Origin: Patescibacteria group bacterium
Lineage (GTDB): Bacteria > Patescibacteriota > Minisyncoccia > Phycocordibacterales > GWA1-40-21
Length of the DNA: 33,913 nt
Assembly: GCA_038078215.1 (NCBI GenBank)
Contig: JBBUED010000003.1
Span: forward strand, 8,099-42,011
Reading direction: 5' to 3'
A program made the position numbers and the translations under genes. Within the stretch, counting starts at the first letter, position 1, and each line of letters begins with the position of its first letter. This document shows, in pieces, positions 683-28,740 of this stretch. The notes under the pieces were generated by a model. It was not told the DNA's origin. It saw only the letters and a list, made by a program, of their open reading frames with translations, and ran no database searches.

Positions 683-793
683 GTAGCTGTTTAGCTTCTT
701 AGCTTTTTAGAAAGGAGAAAAAACATTAAATACAGCTTTTCTATTTTCATAATCTTCCTAAAAAGCTAAGAAGCTACAAGCTAAAAAGCTGTT
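683..793. repeat. AGCT-periodic inverted repeat pair (hairpin-forming) in the yebC-ruvC spacer
   Basis: Left arm gtagctgtttagcttcttagctttttag (683-710); right arm cctaaaaagctaagaagctacaagctaaaaagctg (758-792). Nineteen nt (tagcttcttagctttttag / ctaaaaagctaagaagcta) are perfectly complementary. The same family recurs at 14083-14152, 16681-16883, 17315-17351 and 17799-17856. Confidence 0.7.
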
Positions 794-3284: not shown

Positions 3285-5828
3285 ATGATGTTTAAGAACG
3301 CAATGCGTAAAAAGAGGCATTTAAAATTTTGGAGAAAGTTTATTAAAAATGCGGTAATAATAGCAACCGCCTTGTTTTTGTTCGCTGTGAGCGCCCTTGT
3401 CTACTGGGTGTCCACATTTCAAATCCCCGACCTCGGCTCGTTTGAGAAAAGGAAGGTCATACAGTCAACAAAAATTTACGACAGAACCGGCAAAATACTT
3501 CTTTACGACCTGCATCAGGACATAAAAAGAACAGTCGTTCCCATTGAAGAAATTTCCAGGAACATCAAAAATGCGACGGTGGCGATTGAGGATGAGGAAT
3601 TTTATCAACATAAAGGAATAAAGATTACTTCCATAATAAGAGCGGTCTTGGCCAACCTCACCAAAGGAAGCTACAGCCAAGGGGGATCCACAATCACCCA
3701 ACAAGTGGTGAAAAACTCGCTTCTGAACTCTGAAAAGAAAATTTCCAGAAAGTTAAAAGAATGGTTCCTTGCCTTAAAATTGGAAAAAATGATGAGCAAA
3801 GATGAAATTCTCGGAATTTATCTGAATGAAGCGCCTTACGGAGGTTATATATACGGCATAGAAGAGGCTAGCCAGGCTTACTTCGGCAAAAATGCTTCGG
3901 ACTTAACGATCGCCGAATCAGCGCATTTGGCGGCGCTCCCGAACGCGCCGACTTATTATTCTCCTTATGGTCCGAACGCGAAAAAACTGATAGACAGGAA
4001 AAATTTGGTTTTAAAAAAAATGCTTGACAAAAACTTCATCTCAAAAGATGAATATGATTTGGCAATGAAAGATGTCGTTTCTTTTTATCCGCAAGATAGA
4101 TTAGGCATTAAAGCTCCTCACTTTGTCGCCTATACAATAAAATATCTGGAAAATAAATATGGCAAAAAAACGGTTGAAGAAGGCGGTTTGAAAGTGACAA
4201 CAACGTTGGATTACGGCCTGCAGCAGAAAGCCGAAGAAATCGTTAAAAAATTCTCACTGGAGAACAAACAGAAATTCAATGCTGGGAACGCGGCGCTTGC
4301 GGCCATTGACCCGAAAACCGGACAGATATTGGTTATGGTCGGATCAAGGGATTATTTTGACAAAGAGATTGACGGAAACTTCAATGTCACCACCGCGCAC
4401 AGACAGCCGGGGTCAGCTTTCAAACCTTTTGTCTACGCGGCCTCTTTTAATAAAGGATTCACGCCGGAGACGGTATTGTTTGATTTGCCTACGGAATTTC
4501 AAGCGGGTTGCGACCCTAAAGGAACGCCCACAACAACACCGGTAGCCGAAACAAAAGATTGTTATATGCCGCAAAATTACGATAATCTTTTTGTCGGACC
4601 TATAACACTAAGAAACGCTTTGGCGCAATCAAGAAACGTTCCGTCCGTCAAACTGCTCTATCTTACCGGAATAAAAGATTCTTTGCGGTTGGCGAAAGAT
4701 ATGGGGATAGAAGATTTGGGCGGCGCCAACCAATACGGATTGTCGCTTGTTTTGGGGGGCGGGGAGGTCTCTCTGCTTGATATAACGAATGCGTACGGAG
4801 TATTCGCAAACAACGGGGTAAGAAACCCTAAAACGGGCATTATTGAAGTAAATGACAAAGACGGTAAAATTCTTGAAAAATTTGAGCTTAAAAATACCGA
4901 GGCGATGCCGGAAGAAACGGCTTTAAAAATTTCCGACATCTTATCTGACAATGCGGCTAGAACGCCTCTCTACGGAAACAGGTCGCTTTTGTATTTTGAA
5001 AACAGAGATGTGGCGGTAAAAACGGGAACGACGAATGATTATAGGGATGCTTGGACGGTCGGCTACTCGCCTAATATCGCGGTGGGAGCGTGGGTCGGTA
5101 ACAACGACAACAGTCCTATGGAAAAAAAGGTTGCCGGACTTATCGTAACGCCGATGTGGCGCGCTTTTATGGATGAGGTGTTGGCGACGTTGCCGAAAGA
5201 AAAATTTAAAAGGCCGGCGCAAACAGTCGCGAGTGATTTAAAACCTGTATTTAGGGGAATATGGAAAGGCGGTGAATCCTATTTTACGGACAAAATATCG
5301 GGGAAACTGGCGACAAACGAAACGCCGAAAGAAATGCTTAAGGAAAACACGATAACCAACACTCATTCCATTTTATACTGGGTTGATAAAACAGACATAC
5401 TGAACAAAAACAAACCTTTAAATCCGGAAAGCGACCCCCAGTTTATAAACTGGGAATATCCGATACAGGAATGGCTTAAAGGTCAAAATTTACCGAAAGA
5501 TACCGCCAAGCCGGCGGAGTTTGACGATGTCCACACTGGGAAAAACAAGCCTAAAATAAAAATTATAGAACCGTCTCCAGACAAAGAATACGGCAAGGAC
5601 GAAAGAGTTATTGTTAAAATAACAAGTTCTGGGAATTATCCTTTATTAAAAACCGAATATATTATAAATGGAGAATATATAGGATCATCAACCAAATCTC
5701 CGTTTGAATTCGTCTTGACGCCGGATGACATTAAAAATATCAAAAAAAACAATGAGCTCCGGGTCGTCGGTTACGATACCGTATTAAACAAAAATGAAGA
5801 CACGGTTAATTTTAAAATTAAAATATAA
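3285..5828 (+). CDS. Class A penicillin-binding protein (bifunctional glycosyltransferase/transpeptidase) with a C-terminal beta-rich extension
   Basis: GT51 motifs EDEEFYQHKGI, GGSTITQQ and RKLKEWFLALKLE; transpeptidase motifs SAFKP (SxxK), SRN and KTGTT; N-terminal TM helix. The track ORF starts at GTG 3231; ATG 3285 (MMFKNAMRKKRH...) is preferred but uncertain. Confidence 0.9.
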   Translation: MMFKNAMRKKRHLKFWRKFIKNAVIIATALFLFAVSALVYWVSTFQIPDLGSFEKRKVIQSTKIYDRTGKILLYDLHQDIKRTVVPIEEISRNIKNATVAIEDEEFYQHKGIKITSIIRAVLANLTKGSYSQGGSTITQQVVKNSLLNSEKKISRKLKEWFLALKLEKMMSKDEILGIYLNEAPYGGYIYGIEEASQAYFGKNASDLTIAESAHLAALPNAPTYYSPYGPNAKKLIDRKNLVLKKMLDKNFISKDEYDLAMKDVVSFYPQDRLGIKAPHFVAYTIKYLENKYGKKTVEEGGLKVTTTLDYGLQQKAEEIVKKFSLENKQKFNAGNAALAAIDPKTGQILVMVGSRDYFDKEIDGNFNVTTAHRQPGSAFKPFVYAASFNKGFTPETVLFDLPTEFQAGCDPKGTPTTTPVAETKDCYMPQNYDNLFVGPITLRNALAQSRNVPSVKLLYLTGIKDSLRLAKDMGIEDLGGANQYGLSLVLGGGEVSLLDITNAYGVFANNGVRNPKTGIIEVNDKDGKILEKFELKNTEAMPEETALKISDILSDNAARTPLYGNRSLLYFENRDVAVKTGTTNDYRDAWTVGYSPNIAVGAWVGNNDNSPMEKKVAGLIVTPMWRAFMDEVLATLPKEKFKRPAQTVASDLKPVFRGIWKGGESYFTDKISGKLATNETPKEMLKENTITNTHSILYWVDKTDILNKNKPLNPESDPQFINWEYPIQEWLKGQNLPKDTAKPAEFDDVHTGKNKPKIKIIEPSPDKEYGKDERVIVKITSSGNYPLLKTEYIINGEYIGSSTKSPFEFVLTPDDIKNIKKNNELRVVGYDTVLNKNEDTVNFKIKI

Positions 5829-9419: not shown

Positions 9420-9540
9420 TTTATAGTGGTTAGCGGTTAGACAAAAAGACAGTAATAATTATTTAATTCCTAATTGATCTAATTTCTAATCAAATCCCAA
9501 TTTCTAAACCTAAAACCTATAAATTAAAACCTAACCCGCC
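9417..9540. repeat. GGTTAG/CCTAA-type inverted low-complexity repeats in the rnpA-yidC spacer
   Basis: G-rich arm tagtttatagtggttagcggttagac (9417-9442) and C-rich arm ctaaacctaaaacctataaattaaaacctaacccgcc (9504-9540). Confidence 0.5.
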
Positions 9541-11790: not shown

Positions 11791-12372
11791 TTATATTGAA
11801 ATTGGTTCTGAAGGAGGGTCTATTTCGGAGGCGTCATCTTCAGTGGTCTCATTGTCGCCACTGTCCGTATTATCACCGGCATTGTCGCCCGTCGTTTCAC
11901 CACTGGAATAGTCATCGCTCTCATTTGTCTGTTCGCCGTCTTGGTTTGTGCTTGTCGTCGTCTCCACATTCAAATTAAAGTCAGTCAATTTCGGATTTAT
12001 CGTATACAAAAGAATCCAAGAAACAAGCACTAACACAAGCCCCCACAGAGCGTTTTGAATTCTTTCTTTTCCTTCAGACTTGCCCTGTATGGCGTCAGTG
12101 GTTATGTATTCCACCCCGCCTATGATAATCATAAGCACGGCTAAAACTCCAGCGATTCCTATGGCTAATTTGAAAATACCGGGAATATAAGTCTGAATGT
12201 TAGTGGTTCCTTCTTCATTTGTTGTGCCGGGAAGCGGAGCGAGGGGGGTGTATTCATCCCATGAGGTTGAAGTGTTTTCTGCCAGAGCAAAACCAGCTAA
12301 GCTTCCAAAGACCACGAAGCCCAATCCGAGAGATATTATTATCGCAATTATTTTTTTGTTTTTAAATCTCAT
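11791..12372 (-). CDS. T4SS-pilin-like (VirB2/TrbC-type) secreted membrane protein with a long acidic tail
   Basis: Signal peptide (IIAIIISLGLGFVVFGSLAGFALA) and two hydrophobic helices (IFKLAIGIAGVLAVLMIIIGGVEYI and ALWGLVLVLVSWILLYTINP) separated by a charged loop (QGKSEGKERIQN). This is the layout of the 'type IV secretion system pilin' family common in CPR. The C-terminal ~60 aa are rich in D/E/S/T/G. Confidence 0.6.
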   Translation of the reverse strand: MRFKNKKIIAIIISLGLGFVVFGSLAGFALAENTSTSWDEYTPLAPLPGTTNEEGTTNIQTYIPGIFKLAIGIAGVLAVLMIIIGGVEYITTDAIQGKSEGKERIQNALWGLVLVLVSWILLYTINPKLTDFNLNVETTTSTNQDGEQTNESDDYSSGETTGDNAGDNTDSGDNETTEDDASEIDPPSEPISI

Positions 12373-13532: not shown

Positions 13533-13665
13533 GAATTACGAAACTCGTCGAGGCGGGCTATTTTGAAGGGGTTTTGAGCGCGACGGCGCGAAAATTTCAG
13601 GATTTTTTAAGCTTCAAAAAATCCGTACCTTCAAAATAGCCCGCCGAGTAAGAGTTTCGTAATTC
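13533..13665. repeat. Long hairpin element with GAATTRCGAAA termini (copy 2)
   Basis: Outer stem gaattacgaaactc (13533-13546) / gagtttcgtaattc (13652-13665). Second stem ggcgggctattttgaagg (13552-13569) / ccttcaaaatagcccgcc (13628-13645), 18 bp perfect. An inner hairpin is ggatttttt-aagcttc-aaaaaatcc. Confidence 0.75.
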
Positions 13666-13670
13666 AAAGT

Positions 13671-14066
13671 CTATTTGTTATCTTTAGCGGCGCTGTCAAC
13701 CATGGTTTTGTAAACTTCAGGAAAATGACCCCCAAGAATTTTTTTAGTCTGGAAGAACATAAAGATAACCACTATGGAAAGCGTCCATGCCGGCAAGGCG
13801 TTTAATCCGGGTATAAGCTCTATAAAAAAAGTTCCTACCGTGGTAGCGACGACTTTGGAATCAAATTTTGATCCCACCAATCTAAACCACAGGAAAAAAG
13901 TGAGCCAAGCGAAAATGCTGACCCCGCTTGTTATTGTCCATGCCAGTATAAAACCAACATAAGGAATGAAGTTCATCAAATCCGCTCCAAACTGAATCCC
14001 GTCAAAGAAAAGAGCGACAGCAATCATCGCCCACATTGTTATTTTGTTTATTTCTTGGTCTTCCAT
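13671..14066 (-). CDS. Small polytopic membrane protein (131 aa, about 4 TM), unknown function
   Basis: Four hydrophobic segments and no signal-peptide cleavage site. Immediately downstream of the VirB4-like gene. Confidence 0.6.
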   Translation of the reverse strand: MEDQEINKITMWAMIAVALFFDGIQFGADLMNFIPYVGFILAWTITSGVSIFAWLTFFLWFRLVGSKFDSKVVATTVGTFFIELIPGLNALPAWTLSIVVIFMFFQTKKILGGHFPEVYKTMVDSAAKDNK

Positions 14067-14082
14067 ATTTGTTTAGGGTAAT

Positions 14083-14152
14083 AGCTTGTAGTTTATTAGC
14101 TTTTTAGTATCGGGCTCTTAATCTTACCTAACAAGCTACAAGCTAAAAAGCT
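14083..14152. repeat. AGCT-periodic repeat pair between the VirB4-like gene and the 131-aa gene
   Basis: agcttgtagtttattagctttttag (14083-14107) and cctaacaagctacaagctaaaaagct (14127-14152), in opposite orientations. Confidence 0.6.
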
Positions 14153-14159
14153 TCCCCTC

Positions 14160-15974
14160 CTAACCAATCGCTTCCATCTCCTCCTTGGCTTTTTTAATCG
14201 CCAAAAGTTGGGATGGGTCGGAAGTTATTATCTGGTCTTCGGTGTATGAGGCGATTATTTTGATGGCGACATGTTTTAACCCCACGAAGAACATTCCCTC
14301 CCCAACATCGGATTCAAGCAGAAGATATTTTTCTTCTTCCGTTAGGTTGAATATTCTCTGAAGATTGTCTATCGTGGATGATGACTGCTTTAACAAAACT
14401 TGAATGGATGAGTTGCTGATAATAGGCATTCCGTAGGGGGATTTAAGGAAGTCATCCACATCCTGCGTGATCGTGGCAAGCCCGAGATAATATTTTCGTC
14501 CTCTTTTCGCCAAGCTAAAGAGGAATGACGCCGTGTCCTCCGATTTCATCATCCACCAAGCCTCGTCAATAACCAAAAGTCGTTTCTTCAAAGTTTTTCT
14601 GATAGCGTTCCAGATAAAGTGCGTGACTATATACATCGCCACGGGCTTGAGCTCGTCTTCCATATCTCTTATGGAGAAGACTATGAACTTGCTGTTTATG
14701 TCCACATTGGTCGGGCGATTGATAAACCCCGCCCATGTGCCTTTGGTGTATTTTGAAAGTTTTTGCACGAGTCCTTCCGCTCCTTCCATACCCGCGAGCA
14801 CAAGCTCAAAGTCGGAGAGAAGCGGCGGCTCAATGTTGGAAAAATCGGAGTCGGCGGTAATGTCTTTAAGGGCGTAAGTTTCGCTGATGGCGCGGTCAAT
14901 TATGGCGTCTTCTTCTGGAGAGAGTCCGCCGAGCATAATTCTGAAAAGTCCGACGAGGTTGATTATGTTTGAGCGCAAAACATCCGCGGGCGATTCATCC
15001 TCTCTCGCCGTAGGCAAGTCAAAAGGGTTTATATGATTGTTGGAATTAAGAGATATATTGAAATATTTTCCACCGGTCGCTTCGGCCATATATTCGTATT
15101 CTCTCTCCGGGTCAATCACGATTATCTCCGCGCCGAACATAAGTGTTCGCAATATTTCAAGCTTCGCGGCATAAGATTTGCCGGCGCCGGACTTGGCGAA
15201 AATTATGGAGTTGTAATTTTCAAGAGAGAATCGGTCAAAAAGAACTAAGCTGGAATTGTGCCTATTTATTCCATAAAGTATGCCCTTGTCTGAAGTAAGG
15301 TCAAAAGAAATAAACGGGAAAAGGCTTGAGATGGGCGATGAATTTAATTTTGAATACACATTGAGCTCGTCGGACGCTATCGGCAAAACGCTCTTGTATC
15401 CTTGCTCTTGTTGGAAAAGAGCGGGTTTCAAATAAACAAGTTTTGATTCAAGTATTGTCTTTATTTCCGATTCAATTTTATCAAGCTCATTGTCGCTGTC
15501 TCCGTAAATGGTGATGTAAACCGCCACATCAAAAAGTTTTTCTTGCGCCTGCTGAAGATTATCTCTCAAACTTTCAAGGTCTCGGTAAGCGGTGTCTAAT
15601 ATAGGGTCGCGAACCAGCCCTTTTCTTTCCCTTTCGTTGATCTGACTTTGGACTTCGGCGACTTTTTTCTGGAATTGACGGAGCATTTTTTCGGTTTCAA
15701 TCGGATGAATGGATATTGAAATGTCAAAGACTTTGTCCAAGTTTATTACCGGAGAAAACCAGCTTTCCGACAAGTATCGGGGATAGGAAATCACAAAAAA
15801 AGTTCTAGCGATTTTATCGCCCAAATTCAGTCCCTTAGGGGTTATTTTAAGGGCGGACGGCGCGATAATGTCTTGGAGCTCCAAAACGCCGGCCTCGTAT
15901 ATTTCTTGCGGCAAAACCGAAGAAATTGCCACCTGCTTTTCTTTTTTTCCGAATAATTTGTTGAAAAATGACAT
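14160..15974 (-). CDS. VirB4/TrbE/PrgJ-like type IV secretion ATPase
   Basis: Walker A FAKSGAGKSYAAK, VIDPEREY, Walker B RLLVIDEAWWMM, and a VirB4-type N-domain (LNLGDKIARTFFVISYPRYLSESWF). Confidence 0.85.
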   Translation of the reverse strand: MSFFNKLFGKKEKQVAISSVLPQEIYEAGVLELQDIIAPSALKITPKGLNLGDKIARTFFVISYPRYLSESWFSPVINLDKVFDISISIHPIETEKMLRQFQKKVAEVQSQINERERKGLVRDPILDTAYRDLESLRDNLQQAQEKLFDVAVYITIYGDSDNELDKIESEIKTILESKLVYLKPALFQQEQGYKSVLPIASDELNVYSKLNSSPISSLFPFISFDLTSDKGILYGINRHNSSLVLFDRFSLENYNSIIFAKSGAGKSYAAKLEILRTLMFGAEIIVIDPEREYEYMAEATGGKYFNISLNSNNHINPFDLPTAREDESPADVLRSNIINLVGLFRIMLGGLSPEEDAIIDRAISETYALKDITADSDFSNIEPPLLSDFELVLAGMEGAEGLVQKLSKYTKGTWAGFINRPTNVDINSKFIVFSIRDMEDELKPVAMYIVTHFIWNAIRKTLKKRLLVIDEAWWMMKSEDTASFLFSLAKRGRKYYLGLATITQDVDDFLKSPYGMPIISNSSIQVLLKQSSSTIDNLQRIFNLTEEEKYLLLESDVGEGMFFVGLKHVAIKIIASYTEDQIITSDPSQLLAIKKAKEEMEAIG

Positions 15975-16007
15975 AATTTTTTTATTTATTTTCCTTCACC
16001 CTCCCCT

Positions 16008-16036
16008 CTGTCATTCCCGTGAAAACGGGAATCCAG
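16008..16036. repeat. GTCATTCCCG palindromic hairpin
   Basis: ctgtcattcccgt-gaaa-acgggaatccag, between the 212-aa gene stop and the VirB4-like start. The ctgtcattcccg arm recurs at 23956-23968. Confidence 0.5.
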
Positions 16037-16038
16037 TT

Positions 16039-16677
16039 TTAATTTATCTGAATCGGCTTTTCGGTGTCGCCCGGATTAAATATCTTGTAAAACAGCTCCA
16101 CCACCTCTTCCGTCCCTAGTCCTATCGTCCTTATGCCCGCGCGCACCAAACCTTGTTCAACCACGGACACCCTCTGCTCCAATTGCATCCTATTCTCTTC
16201 AAAACTATCGCTTCTTTCTTTGGCGGCGTTTGATTCTTTTCTGTTTCCCAGGAGGCTGCCGACCAATTGCGACTTAGCGCCCACGATAGGGGGGTCGTAT
16301 GGTATGACGACGAAGAAACTTTTTGTCATTATGTTGGAATTCTCCGTGAAATTTTTTATGAAGGCGATATATTCTCTTATCTGTATTTTCATCAGGTCAT
16401 TCAGTTGGTCTTTGTATCGTTCCTCAAGCAGGGCTATATACGGTCTTATGTCCAACTTTCTTGACTGGATGAATATTTGAATCGGAAAATCAAGCGAATT
16501 CAAGAAATTTTGAAATTGGTAGATTATGGAATTGCGCTCGTCCTCGGATTTTAAAGCGAAGTTAAGAGAAGACGCCATTAGAATTGCTCGCATTGAATTG
16601 TTTTTCAAAATAACAATGCCATCTCTTACTTCTTTGATCGGCACGAAATCCTGTGTTGCTTTTGATTTGGTTGGCAT
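16039..16677 (-). CDS. Stand-alone VirB4 N-terminal-domain-like protein (212 aa)
   Basis: FVPIKEVRDGIVILKNNSMRAILMASSLNFALKSEDERNSIIYQFQNFLNSLDFPIQIFIQSRKLDI resembles the N-terminal (non-ATPase) domain of Gram-positive VirB4 homologues. There is no P-loop. Confidence 0.5.
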   Translation of the reverse strand: MPTKSKATQDFVPIKEVRDGIVILKNNSMRAILMASSLNFALKSEDERNSIIYQFQNFLNSLDFPIQIFIQSRKLDIRPYIALLEERYKDQLNDLMKIQIREYIAFIKNFTENSNIMTKSFFVVIPYDPPIVGAKSQLVGSLLGNRKESNAAKERSDSFEENRMQLEQRVSVVEQGLVRAGIRTIGLGTEEVVELFYKIFNPGDTEKPIQIN

Positions 16678-16680
16678 TGG

Positions 16681-16883
16681 GTTAGCTTGTTAGGTTGTAG
16701 CTTCTTAGCTTGTTAGGTTCAGAACTGAAAGCTTTTAGTAATAATAACATATTAATGAAGTTCTTAAGGTTTATAAAGTTATAAAGTAAATCTTCTCCAA
16801 ACTATTTTTTTAAAAAGTTAATAAGCTACAGGCTACTTTTCTTCCCCCTTCTCTTCCTAAAAAGCTACAAGCTAAACAGCTAC
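16681..16883. repeat. 'Empty' inverted-repeat cassette (AGCT family arms around a ~100-nt AT-rich loop)
   Basis: Left arm gttagcttgttaggttgtagcttcttagcttgttagg (16681-16717). Right arms ataagctacaggctac (about 16821-16836) and cctaaaaagctacaagctaaacagctac (16856-16883). The loop contains an ATAAAGTT-type segment. Confidence 0.6.
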
Positions 16884-17314
16884 TTCCTATAATCTCCCCT
16901 CGTTATCGGATTAATATTTTCATTGATATCCAGGCTCCATGTAAGGTCCTTAAGCTTGCTCTCCGACAATTTTGGAACTTTCAAAAGAGTTGAATTTCCG
17001 TCGGGCAAATTTTCTTTTTTTATTATCGGCTTTTCTCTTTTTTGCCACAAATATAATTTGTTACTAAAAACATATTTTACGGCCGATTCAAGGATGAAGA
17101 TAAACGGCTTGCCGTTGATTTTGTAAAAAGCCAGAGCAACGGAAAAAATCATAACCGGCACTATGAAAAATAAGGCCACGATAATATAAGGAATGATAGA
17201 ATAAATAACGAAAGAAATCCCTCCTCCTCCAGCTAGATAAATAAACTGCTTCAAGGTCAAAGGCCCGAATATCTTGTCTTCTATTTCAATAAATTGCGGG
17301 ACTTGGAAACGCAT
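16880..17314 (-). CDS. PrgI family (VirB3-like) T4SS membrane protein
   Basis: MRFQVPQFIEIEDKIFGPLTLKQFIYL followed by two TM helices is the characteristic PrgI-family N-terminus. The gene sits next to the VirB4-like genes. Confidence 0.65.
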   Translation of the reverse strand: MRFQVPQFIEIEDKIFGPLTLKQFIYLAGGGGISFVIYSIIPYIIVALFFIVPVMIFSVALAFYKINGKPFIFILESAVKYVFSNKLYLWQKREKPIIKKENLPDGNSTLLKVPKLSESKLKDLTWSLDINENINPITRGDYRK

Positions 17315-17856
17315 GTTAGCTGTTTAGCTTGTAGCTTCTTAGCTTTTTAGGTTAAGAGTACTTAATTTTTTAAGGAAGAGAGCATTTTGTTAAGCATTTT
17401 CATCACTTCTGACAAAAGGCTTTCTGATTTAGTATAACTTAAATTTTTTCCGAAAGATAAACTTTTTGCAATCTCCAATTGTGTTTCCAGTTCTGCTCCA
17501 GAACCGTAAGAAACAAGTAAGAAATAATTCAACTCTTTTCTGCTCCCGCGTCTTCTACCCTCGGCTATGTTGGAAGGAATAGATATGGAAGACCTTTTCA
17601 TTTGAGAGGACAGCCCGTAAATTTCTTCTTTTGGAAAATGTGCTGTCAGTTCATAAATAGACCTCACTAATTCCATCGATTTTTGCCAAACTATCAAATC
17701 TTTATAAGAATTTATCTCTTTTGTTTCCATATTTGTTTAGGGTAATTGCTTGTTAGGAAGAGTAAGAGAGGATTGCTTATGTCTTTTTATTATTCGTGCC
17801 TAAAAAGCTTACCCCTCCCCACCTCTCCCCCTAAAAAGCTACAAGCTAATAAGCTA
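17315..17856. repeat. Inverted-repeat-bracketed cassette carrying the four-helix-bundle gene
   Basis: gttagctgtttagcttgtagcttcttagctttttagg (17315-17351) against cctaaaaagctacaagctaataagctac (17829-17856). The arms are near-complementary apart from one extra 8-nt unit and enclose CDS 17362-17730. Confidence 0.55.
17362..17730 (-). CDS. Four-helix-bundle protein (23S rRNA intervening-sequence protein / Avd-like family)
   Basis: LIVWQKSMELVRSIYELTAHFPKEEIYGLSSQMKRSSISIPSNIAEGRRRGSRKELNYFLLVSYGSGAELETQLEIA matches the family signature (W-Q-K ... FP..E ... Q..R...SI..NIAEG ... GS..EL.T). Confidence 0.8.
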   Translation of the reverse strand: METKEINSYKDLIVWQKSMELVRSIYELTAHFPKEEIYGLSSQMKRSSISIPSNIAEGRRRGSRKELNYFLLVSYGSGAELETQLEIAKSLSFGKNLSYTKSESLLSEVMKMLNKMLSSLKN

Positions 17857-18645
17857 CTTTCCTACCTGTTCCCTATACGGGTCAACTTTCTTGTCCACGC
17901 TCGGTTGTTTTGTCTTGGATTGCGGCGCAGAATCATTGATCACGATTGTTTCTTTGGGAACGCTTACTGTTCCAGCCATCTTTGTCTTGAAAATATCTTT
18001 TTCCATTGTTCTTACTATATCTTCCTGCGGTACGGATGGTTTCTGGGGTGCTTGGTATTTTGTTGGGTTAATGATCGCGGCATTGGTCTTGTTGTATGCA
18101 TTCTGAAAAGCTGTTTGACTACTCTCTACTACAACAGGTTTCTCAACAATCTCAACTTCACTTGGACGTTTCGTTCCCAAGTGAAGTTCGGTTTTATTAA
18201 CCGCAGGCAAATTATGATGTTCTTTATCTTCAATTTCTCGCAGTATGTCTTCCCTCTTAAGGATTTCTTCTTCTGTTGTCTTAGTGTCTTTTCTCTCTTC
18301 TAATAAGCCACCTCCTGATTCACTTCTTTCCTCAGATATTTTCTTGAGCGATTCCCTCACCTTCAGAAAAATTTCCCGATTCAAATCTTCCGCTATCGCC
18401 TCGGCTTTTTCTTCCGTCACTTCCGCGTGTTTGGTGATGTTTGCGACTAGATTGTTAGCATGTTCAATGCCGAACATCACCAAGACAGTTTCTTCCCCAA
18501 GATGCCCCGCTTGGTCTATGTGGAGATTATGTTTGTCTGAAATTTTTCTTAATTTTTCTTTCCACGGAATAGACATTATCGCTTCCTGAATATCCTTAGG
18601 TAGCTGTTCAAACCTCTCTTTTAATATTTGTTCGCTATAATTCAT
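17854..18645 (-). CDS. Hypothetical soluble protein (263 aa), charged and low-complexity C-terminal half
   Basis: Long ORF co-directional with the array, with no TM or signal peptide. Helical N-terminal domain (ERFEQLPKDIQEAIMSIPWKEKLRKISDKHNL...). Confidence 0.55.
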   Translation of the reverse strand: MNYSEQILKERFEQLPKDIQEAIMSIPWKEKLRKISDKHNLHIDQAGHLGEETVLVMFGIEHANNLVANITKHAEVTEEKAEAIAEDLNREIFLKVRESLKKISEERSESGGGLLEERKDTKTTEEEILKREDILREIEDKEHHNLPAVNKTELHLGTKRPSEVEIVEKPVVVESSQTAFQNAYNKTNAAIINPTKYQAPQKPSVPQEDIVRTMEKDIFKTKMAGTVSVPKETIVINDSAPQSKTKQPSVDKKVDPYREQVGK

Positions 18646-18664
18646 TTTTTAAATTACTATTTTA

Positions 18665-20701
18665 TTATGGAGTTGTTGGACTAGCTCCACCGCCACCAGC
18701 CCCACCCGCTCCGCTTGCTCCACCCGTTTGTCCTTTTGTTTTTTCTGCAACTAATTTATCTATCAGCTCTGCGACCTCTTTCTCGCCCTTGCTTTTACCT
18801 TTCCTTATCTCTGCCGCCGCATCAGCTCCTGATGGGAATAATTTGTTCAAGACACCTGATTCAAATTCAATCTTTTTCGCGTACCCTTTCTTCATTCTGT
18901 CTCGGACTCTGTCTCTGTAGGACTTGATAGTTTCTATATTTTCTTTGGCTCTATTTATATCATGGCTCTGATTGTCTAAAATAGCTTCTTCTCTTTGCAG
19001 GCTTTCGTATGCTAGTTGGGCGGCATCAAGATCGGTGGCGGCCATAGTTCTTGAAGCTGTATCCGCAAGTCTTCTGTGTTCTATCTTTGCGTCATTCACA
19101 TTATTTTTGAGTTTAATTACAGATTCCATTTTCCGATCTATCAATTCTTCTTCTTTTCTTATCAACTCATCTGTTTTTCCTACTTTAGCCTTACCAACAA
19201 ACTCACCCATTTTTTTCTTTTTATCGGTACTCTTTTTCAGAGCGTCAGCGTAGCCAGTTTTACTGCCGAATTTTTGTCCCGCCACATTATCAAATTGCGT
19301 CTTGGCAAAAGTGCCCAAGGTTGGCGATTTTGCCATAAGCCTCGCCATATATTTATTATTACCCGCCAAATAAGCCGCTCGGCCGAGCGTGTTTCTCCCC
19401 GCGACACCCTGCGCCCAGTTTTGGAATTTGCCTGTGTATTTCAACACTCCGGCGGAGCCTTTGTCCGCCATATCTTTTGCGACTATGAGCGCCCCGATCA
19501 TTAAAGCCATCAATATTACATAGTTCATTATTATGGGGAATGCTCCAACGGTCGGTGAAGAAATAGCATCGTAAAAAGTAGATGTGGAATCGTTTCCTCC
19601 CACCGCTGTCCATAATTGACCAGAATTAATTATGGCGGAAATTAGATAAGCCATAAACAAGAAAGCCGGGGCGAATAAGGCTTGGCTCTGCAATCCTTTC
19701 CACCATTTCGTGGAGTACTCTTTCATTTCGGGGGAAATCAGTCCAAGAAAAGCAACCGGAGAAAAAAGCATATAAAACATAAGAGCGACGAATCTGACGA
19801 TAAACAAAAGCGCGACAGAGAGAAAAACAAAAGCCGAAACAAGAAACAGCGCTGAACCGCCAAGATTATTTAGCGTTATGTTGAAATTAGTAAGACCTTT
19901 ATAAGAATCTTGTTTATTATAGGATGACTCAGGAGATGGTATGCTGGTTTGAAGTCTCATACCCGCCATCATAGCGGTGGAGACGGAACCTGTGGATATG
20001 AGTTTTTTCTCCTCATCAGTACCATCAAGATTGACTTTGGCTGTTCCTACTTCAGTCTGCACGGCATTATAAAATCCCATAGCCACGATGTTAGACGCGT
20101 CTATGATGGCTTTGGTCATAAAAAGACTGAAGTTTATGAAAAGCCCGACCACGATGATATTAGTCAGAAGTTTTTTTGTATCGCCGCCTACCCCCAATAT
20201 CGTCTTAATGGCGATATAGAGCAAGATGAAAATAAAGAGCATATTCGCCACATTTAGGACTATTTTGTACCCCGTGTTTATAACATTGATTCCGTCTATG
20301 TTCTCTTTAAAATCTTTCACCGAGAAGTCCACAGCGTAATCTAGAAGGTAGCCACTCATAGTAAATATTCTAGATGATACATACCATGTGAAACTGGAGA
20401 TCCATGCAAGCATTTGACCGATCGTCGCGTCGGCTATTTTACCCCAGTCTCCCCAAGCTGCAACATTTTGTCCTACAGCGTAACCAGGAATTAAGTTCTT
20501 AGGGTCATCGTGAACATCTTTACCGAATTTAACAAATTCATCAGCCACTTTGTCGTACCAAGTACCACTATACCAGTGACCTTCTGATGCCAATATTTTT
20601 TTCGGTCCAGATACCGTTCCGGAAAAAGGCCCAACAAAAGAAATCCACAGAAAAGTTCCCACCATCGCCACTATTAAAATGTAAGGTATGAATTTTTTCA
20701 T
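18665..20701 (-). CDS. VirB6/TrbL-like polytopic membrane protein with a coiled-coil C-terminal domain and Gly/Ala tail
   Basis: At least 8 hydrophobic helices over about 430 aa, then a charged helical region and GGASGAGGAGGGGASPTTP. Assigned by size, topology and position next to the VirB4/PrgI genes. Start moved to ATG 20701 (MKKFIPYILIV...), 8 nt after the upstream stop. Confidence 0.5.
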   Translation of the reverse strand: MKKFIPYILIVAMVGTFLWISFVGPFSGTVSGPKKILASEGHWYSGTWYDKVADEFVKFGKDVHDDPKNLIPGYAVGQNVAAWGDWGKIADATIGQMLAWISSFTWYVSSRIFTMSGYLLDYAVDFSVKDFKENIDGINVINTGYKIVLNVANMLFIFILLYIAIKTILGVGGDTKKLLTNIIVVGLFINFSLFMTKAIIDASNIVAMGFYNAVQTEVGTAKVNLDGTDEEKKLISTGSVSTAMMAGMRLQTSIPSPESSYNKQDSYKGLTNFNITLNNLGGSALFLVSAFVFLSVALLFIVRFVALMFYMLFSPVAFLGLISPEMKEYSTKWWKGLQSQALFAPAFLFMAYLISAIINSGQLWTAVGGNDSTSTFYDAISSPTVGAFPIIMNYVILMALMIGALIVAKDMADKGSAGVLKYTGKFQNWAQGVAGRNTLGRAAYLAGNNKYMARLMAKSPTLGTFAKTQFDNVAGQKFGSKTGYADALKKSTDKKKKMGEFVGKAKVGKTDELIRKEEELIDRKMESVIKLKNNVNDAKIEHRRLADTASRTMAATDLDAAQLAYESLQREEAILDNQSHDINRAKENIETIKSYRDRVRDRMKKGYAKKIEFESGVLNKLFPSGADAAAEIRKGKSKGEKEVAELIDKLVAEKTKGQTGGASGAGGAGGGGASPTTP

Positions 20702-23919: not shown

Positions 23920-24017
23920 GGTTGTAGGGGTTAGGTTGTAGGTTGTAGGTTTTTTCTGTCATTCCCGCCTGCCCTCCTTCGCTAAAAGCTTCGAAAGGGC
24001 AAAGCGCGGGAATGACA
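23920..24017. repeat. GGTTGTAGG repeat copy followed by a GTCATTCCCGC palindrome
   Basis: ggttgtaggggttaggttgtaggttgtagg (23920-23949), then tgtcattcccgc (23957-23968) ... gcgggaatgaca (24006-24017) with an imperfect inner stem (gccct..ttcg / cgaa..agggc). Confidence 0.6.
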
Positions 24018-24055
24018 ATTCAAAGAAATAGAATAAGGTCAGGTTAGATTTTTTG

Positions 24056-25812: not shown

Positions 25813-26646
25813 TCAAAGCGCCGCACTTAAACATTTCCACTGCTCTATTTTTACATTTTCCGCTCTGGCTTTTGGCGATACTCCGCAATTTTCCAAGGTT
25901 TTTTTAATATTTTCTCCGTTTTTTACCAAATGTCTCATGTTTCCCGCCAAAAGTTTTCTTTTGTGGGCAAACCCGGCTTTTACGATTTGGAAAAATTTTT
26001 CTTCATTAATTTCGTTGAAAAAATCGCGCGAAATGTTATTTATTAGCAATATCGCCGAGTCTACTTTCGGTTTTGGGGAAAAATTTTCTTTTGAAACTTT
26101 GCCGATATTTTTCGGTTTGCCATAAGCCTTAACGCTTATGGAAAGGATGCTTTCCTTGCCGTCATTTGCCGTAATTCTTTTCACTACTTCTTTTTGAAGG
26201 AGGATAACCATTTTGGAAGGCTGGTTTTCGCCGGACAGAAATTTTCTCAAAAACTGTCCCGTAATATAATAAGGAATATTGGCAATTAGTTTGTAGGCGG
26301 GAGTTAGGTTGTGGGTTGTAGGTTGTAGGTTGTAGGAAGAGAAAAAGGTTGCGGGGTTGAAATTAAGAATATCATCGTGGATAAGCTCTAGCTTGCCACT
26401 GGCTATTTCAGGCGAGAATTTGTCGCGGAGGAATTCAAACAACACATCGTCTTTTTCAACAGCGATGACCTTGCCGGATTTTTTAAGCAGTTCTTCCGTG
26501 AGAACGCCTTTGCCCGGCCCAGCTTCCAGTACGATGTCATTTTCTCCCACTTCCCCAGTTTCAATCATGTCTCTGAGCGCCGTTTTTGACTTCAAGAAAT
26601 TTTGTCCGAGCGATTTTTTTGCCTTTAACTTTGAAAAGTTATTCAT
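25813..26646 (-). CDS. rsmA: 16S rRNA (adenine1518/1519-N6)-dimethyltransferase RsmA/KsgA
   Basis: SLGQNFL, SAM-binding VLEAGPGKGVLTEEL, and ANIPYYITGQ. Confidence 0.9.
   Translation of the reverse strand: MNNFSKLKAKKSLGQNFLKSKTALRDMIETGEVGENDIVLEAGPGKGVLTEELLKKSGKVIAVEKDDVLFEFLRDKFSPEIASGKLELIHDDILNFNPATFFSSYNLQPTTHNLTPAYKLIANIPYYITGQFLRKFLSGENQPSKMVILLQKEVVKRITANDGKESILSISVKAYGKPKNIGKVSKENFSPKPKVDSAILLINNISRDFFNEINEEKFFQIVKAGFAHKRKLLAGNMRHLVKNGENIKKTLENCGVSPKARAENVKIEQWKCLSAAL
26290..26345. repeat. GGTTGTAGG-family repeat copy lying in frame inside rsmA
   Basis: tttgtaggcgggagttaggttgtgggttgtaggttgtaggttgtaggaagagaaaaa closely parallels the intergenic copy at 28701-28740 (ggttgtaggcggtaggttgtaggttgtaggaaaagagaa). 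On the minus strand it encodes FFSSYNLQPTTHNLTPAYK. Confidence 0.7.
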
Positions 26647-26687: not shown

Positions 26688-26722
26688 GCCCTAAAACCTA
26701 ACACCTAAAACCTACCACCTTC
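26688..26722. repeat. CCTAAAACC-type (C-rich orientation) repeat in the pcrA-rsmA spacer
   Basis: gccctaaaacctaacacctaaaacctaccaccttc. Confidence 0.6.
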
Positions 26723-28700: not shown

Positions 28701-28740
28701 AGGTTGTAGGCGGTAGGTTGTAGGTTGTAGGAAAAGAGAA
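28701..28740. repeat. GGTTGTAGG repeat (G-rich orientation) upstream of pcrA
   Basis: aggttgtaggcggtaggttgtaggttgtaggaaaagagaa; inverted relative to 26688-26722. Confidence 0.6.

Follow-up and report, generated by a model that had tools for sequence, protein, structure and literature searches.

Within a stretch of 33,913 nucleotides (nt) of DNA from a Patescibacteria group bacterium (contig JBBUED010000003.1; the whole of this stretch is referred to below as the window), a gene for a four-helix-bundle (4HB) protein lies between two inverted arrays of short tandem repeats at a gene junction of a type IV secretion system-like (T4SS-like) cluster. We refer to the gene with its two arrays, or arms, as cassette D. 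In our view the best interpretation is that the region contains one full member and three gene-less relatives of a class of 4HB cassettes, widespread and promoterless, that would be processed at the RNA stage, and we regard this interpretation, taken as a whole, as modestly probable. Its parts differ in strength. The cassette and its turnover are observed, and we hold them with high confidence; the RNA-processing step is drawn from analogy and is put forward as a tentative suggestion.

The T4SS-like cluster occupies the minus strand from 10.5 to 23.9 kb of the window. Cassette D is located between a gene for a 263-residue protein and prgI, and its 4HB gene (17362–17730) is enclosed by inverted arrays of TAGCTTNT-type repeats. 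On the plus strand a T-type array, GTTAGCTGTTTAGCTTGTAGCTTCTTAGCTTTTTAGGTT, is found at 17315–17353 and an A-type array, CCTAAAAAGCTACAAGCTAATAAGCTAC, at 17829–17857. The two are imperfect reverse complements of each other and consist of tandem units of 7–8 nt, the two lengths alternating in the window. An earlier reading of this DNA, made from the letters alone (the sequence-only reading), had described a 122-residue 4HB gene bracketed by inverted arms; both gene and arms were recovered here, with the arms slightly longer at the positions just given. The 5′ arm of the transcript includes the TAG stop codon (17854–17856) of the upstream 263-residue gene. The leader that follows contains inner partial repeats (17800–17812 and 17735–17755) and a purine run. 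The predicted RNA fold of cassette D, in which the two arms pair with each other around the gene, has an energy of −142.2 kcal/mol (z −3.3), and none of 100 shuffles equals it. A promoter and terminator scan of 13600–18700 gave no excess over shuffles and no site at the arms or in the cassette D leader. An intrinsic terminator was also considered for the arms and rejected, since none of the arms coincides with a terminator-like site and a U tract of the terminator type is lacking. No Rfam family, rRNA included, matches the window, and the genes flanking cassette D are protein-coding. The coordinates of these and the other features discussed are collected in Table 1.

Table 1. Features of the window (positions counted from its first letter)
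Feature	Position	Strand	Remarks
4HB protein gene, 122 aa, cargo of cassette D	17362–17730	−	PF05635/TIGR02436
Cassette D 5′ arm, transcript sense GTAGCTTATTAGCTTGTAGCTTTTTAGG	17829–17857	−	Pairs with 17315–17353 in the minimum-free-energy fold
Cassette D leader, 98 nt, 5′ arm to 4HB start codon	17731–17828	−	
Cassette D 3′ arm, five TAGST units (plus strand)	17315–17353	−	Abuts the prgI ATG (17314)
Gene-less hairpin C, prgI/TraC-like junction	16681–16885	−	5′ arm 16856–16885, 3′ arm 16681–16720, loop about 135 nt
Gene-less hairpin B, VirB4-like ATPase/131-aa membrane protein junction	14082–14153	−	Arms 14127–14153 and 14082–14107, loop 19 nt
Gene-less hairpin A, yebC/ruvC junction	683–791	+	Arms 683–710 and 757–791, loop 46 nt; highest stability among the four
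Sister-type array, AACCTA units, between pcrA and ksgA	26690–26720		
PrgI (VirB3-like) gene	16880–17314	−	Between sites D and C
TraC-like N-terminal ORF of VirB4-like ATPase, 212 aa	16039–16677	−	
P-loop ORF of VirB4-like ATPase, 604 aa	14160–15974	−	
T4SS pilin gene	11791–12372	−	T4SS-like cluster

The same repeats recur elsewhere in the window. The motif TAGCTNNTTAGCT, with at most one mismatch allowed, has 16 matches where 0.39 are expected, a number reached by none of 100 shuffles. They form three further hairpins, A, B and C. The spacer at 16681–16883, which belongs to hairpin C, carries arms of the same two types in the same layout as cassette D (84% identical for arm D1 and 88% for arm D2), and is non-coding apart from an open reading frame (ORF) of 22 codons; the arm types, their inverted layout and the lack of a gene agree with the sequence-only reading. 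Its description of this spacer as an empty copy of the same site is retained in part: the repeat family is the same, but a gene-less relic or non-autonomous hairpin fits the data better than a virgin target. In every window hairpin the upstream stop codon lies inside or just before the first unit of the 5′ arm, and 0–10 nt separate the end of the 3′ arm from the next ATG, the distance at site B being 10 nt. At site C the first units of the 5′ arm supply the final codons and the stop codon of prgI. Hairpin A has a stable predicted fold (z −4.6, 0 of 200 shuffles as good). When 4HB coding remnants were sought in the loops of hairpins A, B and C none was found, and the arms alone match. A sister type of array, with TAGGTT/AACCTA units, is present in intergenic positions without a 4HB gene at 9420–9538, 23920–23955 and 28702–28732 in addition to the one listed in Table 1. 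It is present once more in frame within ksgA. This type flanks 4HB cassettes in the relatives L004, L010 and L214 (L numbers denote retrieved loci).

We note that 29 nt (96.6% identical) are common to 14064–14092 and 17728–17756, the latter being part of the 4HB leader plus ATGGAA. The former is the start region of the gene for the 131-residue membrane protein, for which the gene callers of L006 and L010 place the start 11–13 codons downstream. Given this match and these downstream starts, the N-terminus ‘MEDQEINKIT’ of the membrane protein may have been left behind by an earlier 4HB cassette.

Turnover of the cassette is evident when the same operon is compared among relatives, which were fetched with PrgI as the anchor. 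Site D denotes the junction between the 263-residue gene and prgI, and site C the prgI/TraC-like junction. The PrgI identities given in Table 2 are from pairwise alignments for L004–L010 and from the anchor search for L214 and L216.

Table 2. State of sites D and C in relatives of the window
Relative	PrgI identity	Site D	Site C
L004	92%	4HB gene intact, with TAGGTT/AACCTA arms	Gene-less hairpin
L005	87%	4HB gene intact, with TAGCTT arms	Gene-less hairpin
L006–L009	85%	Arms intact, final ~130 nt of the gene remain	Gene-less hairpin
L010–L012	85%	Intact 4HB gene (read in L010; L011 and L012 contigs stop short)	Intact 4HB gene
L214/L215	79%	Independently decayed remnant (L214 read; same spacer, without a 4HB gene, in L215)	Intact 4HB gene
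L216/L217	60%	Hairpin absent, 4-nt junction	Hairpin absent, 22-nt junction

Site C is filled by an intact 4HB gene in L010–L012 and L214/L215, so that the ‘empty’ site of the window is occupied in relatives, and both sites are absent from L216/L217, in which the operon is compact. At site D of L006–L009 and L214 what is left between intact arms is the 3′ ~100–140 nt of a 4HB gene. The remnant at site D of L006 is 89% identical to the L005 gene (tblastn E 1.7e-13). Recognizable 4HB remnants were found only here, by search, and at site D of L214, by eye; the gene-less hairpins at these two loci are demonstrably decayed cassettes. Cassettes decay by internal deletion into gene-less hairpins. L006 and L010, the PrgI proteins of which are 99% identical, differ at both sites. 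At site D a decayed cassette with TAGCTT arms in L006 stands against an intact cassette with TAGGTT arms in L010, and at site C a 125-nt loop stands against a 4HB gene. In the latter comparison homology spans the 5′ arm, breaks, and is found again over the final ~20 nt of the 3′ arm, which points to the arms as the boundaries of the cassette. The sequence-only reading had raised the possibility that the repeats serve as recombination sites, and the breaks of homology inside the site C arms support this directly. No target-site duplication was recognized at the junctions compared, where the tandem arms would mask short ones.

The histories of the 4HB gene and of its PrgI neighbor are discordant. 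Relative to L004 the window is 92% identical in PrgI and 66% identical in the 4HB protein, whereas relative to L005 the corresponding values are 87 and 92%. Together with the comparisons of sites D and C, this shows exchange, duplication and loss of the cassette at fixed junctions within a group of close relatives.

The architecture is general for the 4HB gene family, and is found in protein-coding operons rather than in rRNA. One genome per species was scanned with an alignment of 4HB proteins and the best 80 loci were retained. They come from many classes of Patescibacteria, from Bacteroidota (including cultured Flavobacterium, Capnocytophaga and Elizabethkingia), and from Acidobacteriota, Clostridia, Planctomycetota, Kiritimatiellota, Desulfobaccales and bins labelled Gammaproteobacteria. 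An Rfam scan placed none of the 80 at an rRNA; all lie in protein-coding DNA, mostly at junctions between co-directional genes. For each locus the upstream flank of the 4HB gene (200 nt) was aligned locally with the reverse complement of the downstream flank, a procedure adopted in place of duplex folding of 160-nt flanks, which gave noisy whole-length duplexes. The inverted-repeat score obtained in this way has a median of 31, compared with 16 for mismatched partners and 17 for 429 neighboring ORFs of at least 100 residues in the same loci (Mann–Whitney p 5e-36). Scores exceed the neighbor-ORF 95th percentile at 59 of the 80 loci and the 99th percentile at 35. A stricter detector of tandem 7- or 8-nt arrays counts 53 in the 31 kb that lie no more than 160 nt from 4HB genes and 32 in the other 411 kb of the same loci, a 22-fold difference in density. 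The earlier suggestion of a stem-flanked insertion module able to occupy mRNA operons is supported by these arms together with the presence and absence of the cassette among relatives and the stability of the cassette D stem against shuffles, and most of the family members examined are indeed flanked by such arms.

The arms of the 59 cassettes have median values of 30 nt for length, 87.5% for complementarity and 392 nt for separation. Measured from where the 5′ arm begins, the stop codon of the upstream same-strand ORF has a median distance of 0 nt, and the median gap between the 3′ arm and the start of the downstream same-strand ORF is 5.5 nt. The arm period is 7 in 50 of 68 cassettes and 8 in 11, and periodicity is above the control 95th percentile in 55 of the 68. 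The units themselves are lineage-specific, for example TTAGCTG, TCAGTGA, GGGATCA, TCGTATN, TTTAGGC, TAGTGGT and CAGTTCA. A TAG-containing array precedes a CTA-containing array in 48 cases, versus three in the opposite order. This asymmetry is one of array order (T…A versus A…T); its description as a strand polarity, in which the TAG arm is always 5′, was rejected because a T-array…A-array palindrome reads alike on both strands. A need for stops in all three frames was also considered as the cause of the period of 7 or 8. All-frame stops occur in the entry arm of 38 of the 68 cassettes and in the exit arm of 29, and this explanation, being weakly supported, was not retained.

The genes that follow the cassette are ordinary ones and in many cases essential. 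Downstream of it lie PrgI also in Saccharibacteria, Kaiserbacteria and Paceibacteria, SdhB and NadD in Flavobacteriia, AtpA and AtpG in Acidobacteriota, GroEL (at a groES/groEL junction) in a Kiritimatiellota bin, and elsewhere RuvA and RecR. Among culturable carriers, the cassette precedes nadD in Flavobacterium succinicans and F. fluvii and sdhB in Capnocytophaga cynodegmi. Operon-interrupting cassettes were noted in L090, L045, L067, L037, L060, L016, L022 and L221. Among plasmid matches, cyanobacterial plasmids dominate and show the same arm pattern. In pANA02 of Anabaena sp. 90 (L221) the 4HB gene, flanked by (GGTGACA)n and (TGTCACC)n, separates cas6 from cas4 in a type I-D system, and L220 has cyanobacterial TTAGCTG arms. 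We note two plasmids of Nostoc sp. PCC 7120, alpha (L218) and gamma (L219), that carry identical 4HB genes with a downstream array only (CTCTGCC, about five copies); a complementary array was not found within 170 nt upstream. An ISL3 transposase gene ends ~80 nt upstream in L219, and in L218 a transposase gene is situated ~550 nt upstream on the other strand. Insertion sequences may have removed the upstream arm in both.

When loci are selected by their arms rather than by the gene, gene-less forms prevail. A metagenome scan with TTAGCTTGTAGCTTNTTAG returned at least 120 stretches, of which 80 (L094–L173) were analyzed. These contain five full 4HB genes, all five flanked by arrays. With nearest-partner pairing, 32 of 33 array pairs enclose no 4HB gene, and 25 of these form small gene-less hairpins whose loops measure 11–52 nt; gene-less hairpins thus outnumber intact cassettes. 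Of the 24 such hairpins that could be evaluated, 16 fill co-directional ORF junctions with the same stop/start geometry. We also note that L043 (Kaiserbacteria) carries near-identical gene-less hairpins at 3918–4018 and 4681–4782, at its PrgI/TraC-like and TraC-like/VirB4 junctions. These twins share ACGTAGT-type arms, the same 45-nt loop and a mini-ORF starting MQTQDTIQGIL, which suggests that gene-less elements are themselves copied.

The 122-residue protein is matched by the PF05635 profile over residues 10–115 (E 6.5e-36, 123.2 bits against a cut-off of 33.8) and by TIGR02436 (116.4 bits, cut-off 24). Its nearest solved structure is PDB entry 2GSC (XCC0516; E 2.8e-21). The coding sequence has dN/dS values of 0.06–0.18, the value against L005 being 0.056, and the protein is under purifying selection; alignment shows polar residues that are invariant across the family. 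PF05635 comprises 20,623 cluster representatives at 50% identity and, apart from Avd, has no known function to our knowledge. The Avd structure 4DWL and 2GSC are structurally homologous (PMC10053308). The window protein shares the fold and superfamily of Avd from diversity-generating retroelements, but it matches the Avd family PF22296 only weakly, and identity with Avd was rejected: the equivalog model NF033474 gives 22 bits against a cut-off of 80, and there is no reverse transcriptase among the scanned window ORFs (template and variable repeats were not searched for). PADLOC has no match for the 4HB gene, which is thus not a known defense component.

The layout of this class, and the mechanism that we propose for it, are as follows. 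A cassette consists of a 4HB gene of ~120 codons between two inverted tandem arrays of 7–8-nt units at a co-directional operon junction, the entry arm carrying TAG-containing units and the exit arm their reverse complement. The first unit of the 5′ arm is the upstream stop codon, and the next ATG lies a few bases past the 3′ arm. Transcription reading through from the host operon would cover the cassette as well. In the transcript the arms are predicted to pair as an imperfect duplex of ~30 bp, looping out the 4HB message so that the stop and start codons on either side come close together. RNase III may then cut the arm duplex, as it does in intervening sequences of rRNA with a gene of this family, and such a cut would allow the insertion to be tolerated both in rRNA and in essential, highly expressed operons such as atp and groESL. 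Movement between sites would most likely proceed by recombination between similar arms of different hairpins.

Several observations weigh against this interpretation. The sequence-only reading had envisaged minus-strand stems at both cassette D and the neighboring spacer; folding against shuffles bears this out for cassette D and does not for spacer C (z −0.87, 38 of 200 shuffles as good), and hairpin B is also unexceptional (z −1.5, 14 of 200). Among 521 mismatches in 73 stems, G·T/T·G mismatches number 100 and A·C/C·A mismatches 115, with no bias. With no G:U excess, the mismatches bear no mark of selection for pairing as RNA, and the complementarity of the arms may reflect inheritance at the DNA level, through their making or copying, rather than a selected RNA helix. 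Some loci are unlike a single long-range stem: L103 has a complete small hairpin on either side of the 4HB gene, and L086 and L068 have arrays of the same orientation on both sides. No recombinase, transposase, integrase or reverse transcriptase was detected among the window ORFs scanned. Finally, the position upstream of prgI is common to several classes of the Candidate Phyla Radiation (CPR), which could mean that the cassette has resided there for long and serves the host, and has not spread selfishly.

The alternative that survives best places the process at the level of DNA, in a system resembling repetitive extragenic palindromic (REP) sequences, the hairpins formed by pairs of them (REPINs) and the REP-associated tyrosine transposases (RAYTs). 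RAYTs are Y1 HUH transposases. The 4HB protein would here bind the flanking arrays, the arms being protein-binding ends, and would maintain or spread the gene-less hairpins; we judge this to be rather unlikely. As in REP/RAYT systems, inverted copies of a short repeat flank a conserved gene, and the repeat also populates other junctions between operon genes as gene-less intergenic hairpins (A, B and C in the window, 25 in the metagenome loci). The near-identical elements at adjacent L043 junctions, the strong purifying selection on the 4HB protein and its invariant polar residues agree with such a role, as does the joint action of the Avd relatives with a polymerase on nucleic acids. The lack of an RNA-helix signature in the mismatches of the stems also keeps the idea of a protein acting on the arrays alive, and heptamer arrays are known from Cyanobacteria and Bacteroidetes (PMC4679880), with 4HB genes present in our Bacteroidota loci and on cyanobacterial plasmids. 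However, the flanked gene encodes a helical bundle of 120 residues, without a transposase match among the families and window ORFs scanned, and the fold has no known catalytic motif or DNA-cleaving activity. The arms are tandem heptamer or octamer arrays and not the single palindrome of a REPIN, and, in contrast to REP/RAYT systems, several copies of the 4HB gene are possible per genome. The junctions compared show no target-site duplications, and the positions upstream of prgI, sdhB and nadD have been stable over long times. Protein type and repeat unit are not simply matched either; co-variation of the two was considered and rejected, as the protein in L103 is of the type that elsewhere accompanies TAGGTT arms, whereas the arms there are TAGCTT.

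A second alternative is that the hairpins are operon-internal control elements (an mRNA stabilizer of the kind formed by REP sequences or bacterial interspersed mosaic elements, a translational coupling device or an attenuator) with the 4HB protein as a host factor. The precision with which the arms abut stop and start codons, the conserved position upstream of prgI across several classes of the CPR, those upstream of sdhB and nadD among Flavobacteriia, and the purifying selection on the protein would all be explained. We nevertheless consider it improbable, since the host operons are functionally unrelated (T4SS, atp, groESL, sdh, cas, ruv and recR) and the cassette is dispensable, being lost or decayed where its neighbors are 85–99% identical and absent from L216/L217; nor is there a terminator-like U tract or an excess of promoters. 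Least probable is coincidence, in which the 4HB gene would lie by chance between two generic REP-like or MITE-like intergenic repeats of the genome (MITEs are miniature transposable elements with inverted repeats): most hairpins are indeed gene-less and arms do pair promiscuously (16857–16882 and 17317–17342, which bracket prgI, are 96% complementary), but the flank scores, with lineage-specific inverted arrays at 59 of 80 4HB genes against 5% of neighboring ORFs, and the 22-fold array density largely refute it, as do the flanked genes (five of five) in the arm-selected stretches and the gene-less hairpins with recognizable 4HB remnants.

Returning to the reading of the region as a cassette excised from RNA, the closest known kind of element is the rRNA intervening sequence (IVS) of Leptospira, Coxiella and some CPR bacteria, which carries an S23p/23S_rRNA_IVP ORF. 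The cargo belongs to the same gene family, and in both cases complementary termini enclose the ORF: the Coxiella IVS has a 28-bp terminal stem on an element of 428–444 nt and is cut by RNase III in mid-stem (PMC4990558), values close in kind to the median arm length and separation reported above. Insertions with a 4HB-family ORF have been catalogued in CPR rRNA, with ORF-less versions at the same sites (bioRxiv 10.1101/2024.02.27.582315), and gene-less versions at the same sites are likewise a feature of the cassettes. Like an IVS, cassette D is without a detected promoter and lies inside a highly transcribed unit. The differences lie in the host, which is a junction of protein-coding genes rather than an rRNA helix (none of the 80 related loci is in rRNA), and in the arms, which are tandem 7–8-nt arrays with TAG/CTA polarity, a feature that we have not seen described for IVS stems. 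Furthermore, RNase III excision has been demonstrated for the IVS, whereas the cassettes described here are known from sequence alone.

Other comparisons are less close. Intergenic direct repeats of heptamers (TAACTGA) have been described in Beggiatoaceae, Cyanobacteria and Bacteroidetes, near start codons, with indels in 7-nt steps and with no gene or mechanism attached (PMC4679880). These, and the short tandemly repeated repetitive (STRR) sequences of cyanobacteria, resemble the arms in being tandem 7-nt intergenic units that contain stop codons and lie next to start codons. The distribution of the TAACTGA repeats is also patchy, and includes phyla, Cyanobacteria and Bacteroidetes, in which 4HB cassettes are found as well. 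Unlike them, the cassette arrays occur in inverted pairs around, or left by, the 4HB gene family, and the unit sequences differ. Integron cassettes share a promoterless ORF with an imperfect inverted repeat conserved in structure rather than sequence, and are co-directional, minimally spaced and variably present at fixed positions. However, the 4HB cassettes are single insertions in housekeeping operons, with no attI array and with cargo always of the same family. An attC identity for the arms was rejected: there is no integrase among the scanned window ORFs, and the arm ends AGCTAAC/GTTAGCT, judged by eye, misfit RYYYAAC/GTTRRRY. For a comparison with MITEs, inverted arms are present and twin copies occur in L043; a target-site duplication was not recognized at the junctions compared, and short ones would be masked by the tandem arms. 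In the open-access literature we found no paper that links the 4HB family to flanking heptamer or octamer arrays or that describes the cassette in mRNA operons. Genes of the 4HB family inside cas loci have been noted and read as functionally associated (PMC3936711); these ‘cas-associated’ reports may reflect cassette insertions.

A broader proposal can be formulated, which we regard as conceivable although doubtful. PF05635 genes would be the coding core of a phylum-spanning class of elements, the ends of which are inverted heptamer or octamer arrays acted on by the protein as RAYTs act on REPINs. The rRNA IVS would then be the special case that was noticed first, and the gene-less progeny of the class would be the intergenic heptamer repeats known from Cyanobacteria, Beggiatoaceae and Bacteroidetes.

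Some features of the window and of its nearest matches are recorded here for completeness. The window belongs to a groundwater bacterium of the Parcubacteria (CPR). Assemblies from the Hainich aquifer contain the same sequence as the window, including the 717-kb contig_2324 of ERZ1286166 (L013). In L013 dnaA, yidC, prgI, the 4HB gene and many others are in fragments that resemble long-read frameshift errors, and its gene calls are unreliable. The VirB4-like ATPase is split into two ORFs in all of the relatives examined, the cassette-free L216 included. The YebC/TACO1 homologue directly upstream of hairpin A (141–671) has only 176 residues, and the Pfam model of the second and third domains matches two separate stretches of it, which suggests an internal deletion relative to a typical YebC. 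A heptamer array of the exit-arm type (CTACAAC, four to five copies) is present at 26300–26345 on the minus strand, in frame within ksgA/rsmA (25813–26646), where it encodes SSYNLQPTTHNLTPAY. Its ‘LQPTT’ peptide is also the C-terminal tail of 4HB proteins in which the ORF enters the 3′ arm (L010); taken together, the in-frame array and the shared peptide indicate that arrays can occupy genes in a translatable orientation. A separate 13-nt inverted repeat, ctgtcattcccgc … gcgggaatgacaa, is found at 23956–24018 in a divergent intergenic region beside a TAGGTT array.

The name of the family suggests a curiosity of rRNA, but the closest relatives of the window gene (the best 80 loci) are all in protein-coding DNA. 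The 4HB family thereby gains a concrete genetic context that can be tested, and culturable carriers have been identified in Flavobacterium, Capnocytophaga and Nostoc. The cassette offers a candidate explanation for the recurrence of 4HB genes in cas and other operons to which they do not belong, and a candidate source for the enigmatic intergenic heptamer repeats. For annotation it carries a warning, in that operon neighbors are a poor guide to the function of a 4HB gene. If the link between the protein and the arrays holds, the cassette could be more than a variant of the rRNA IVS.

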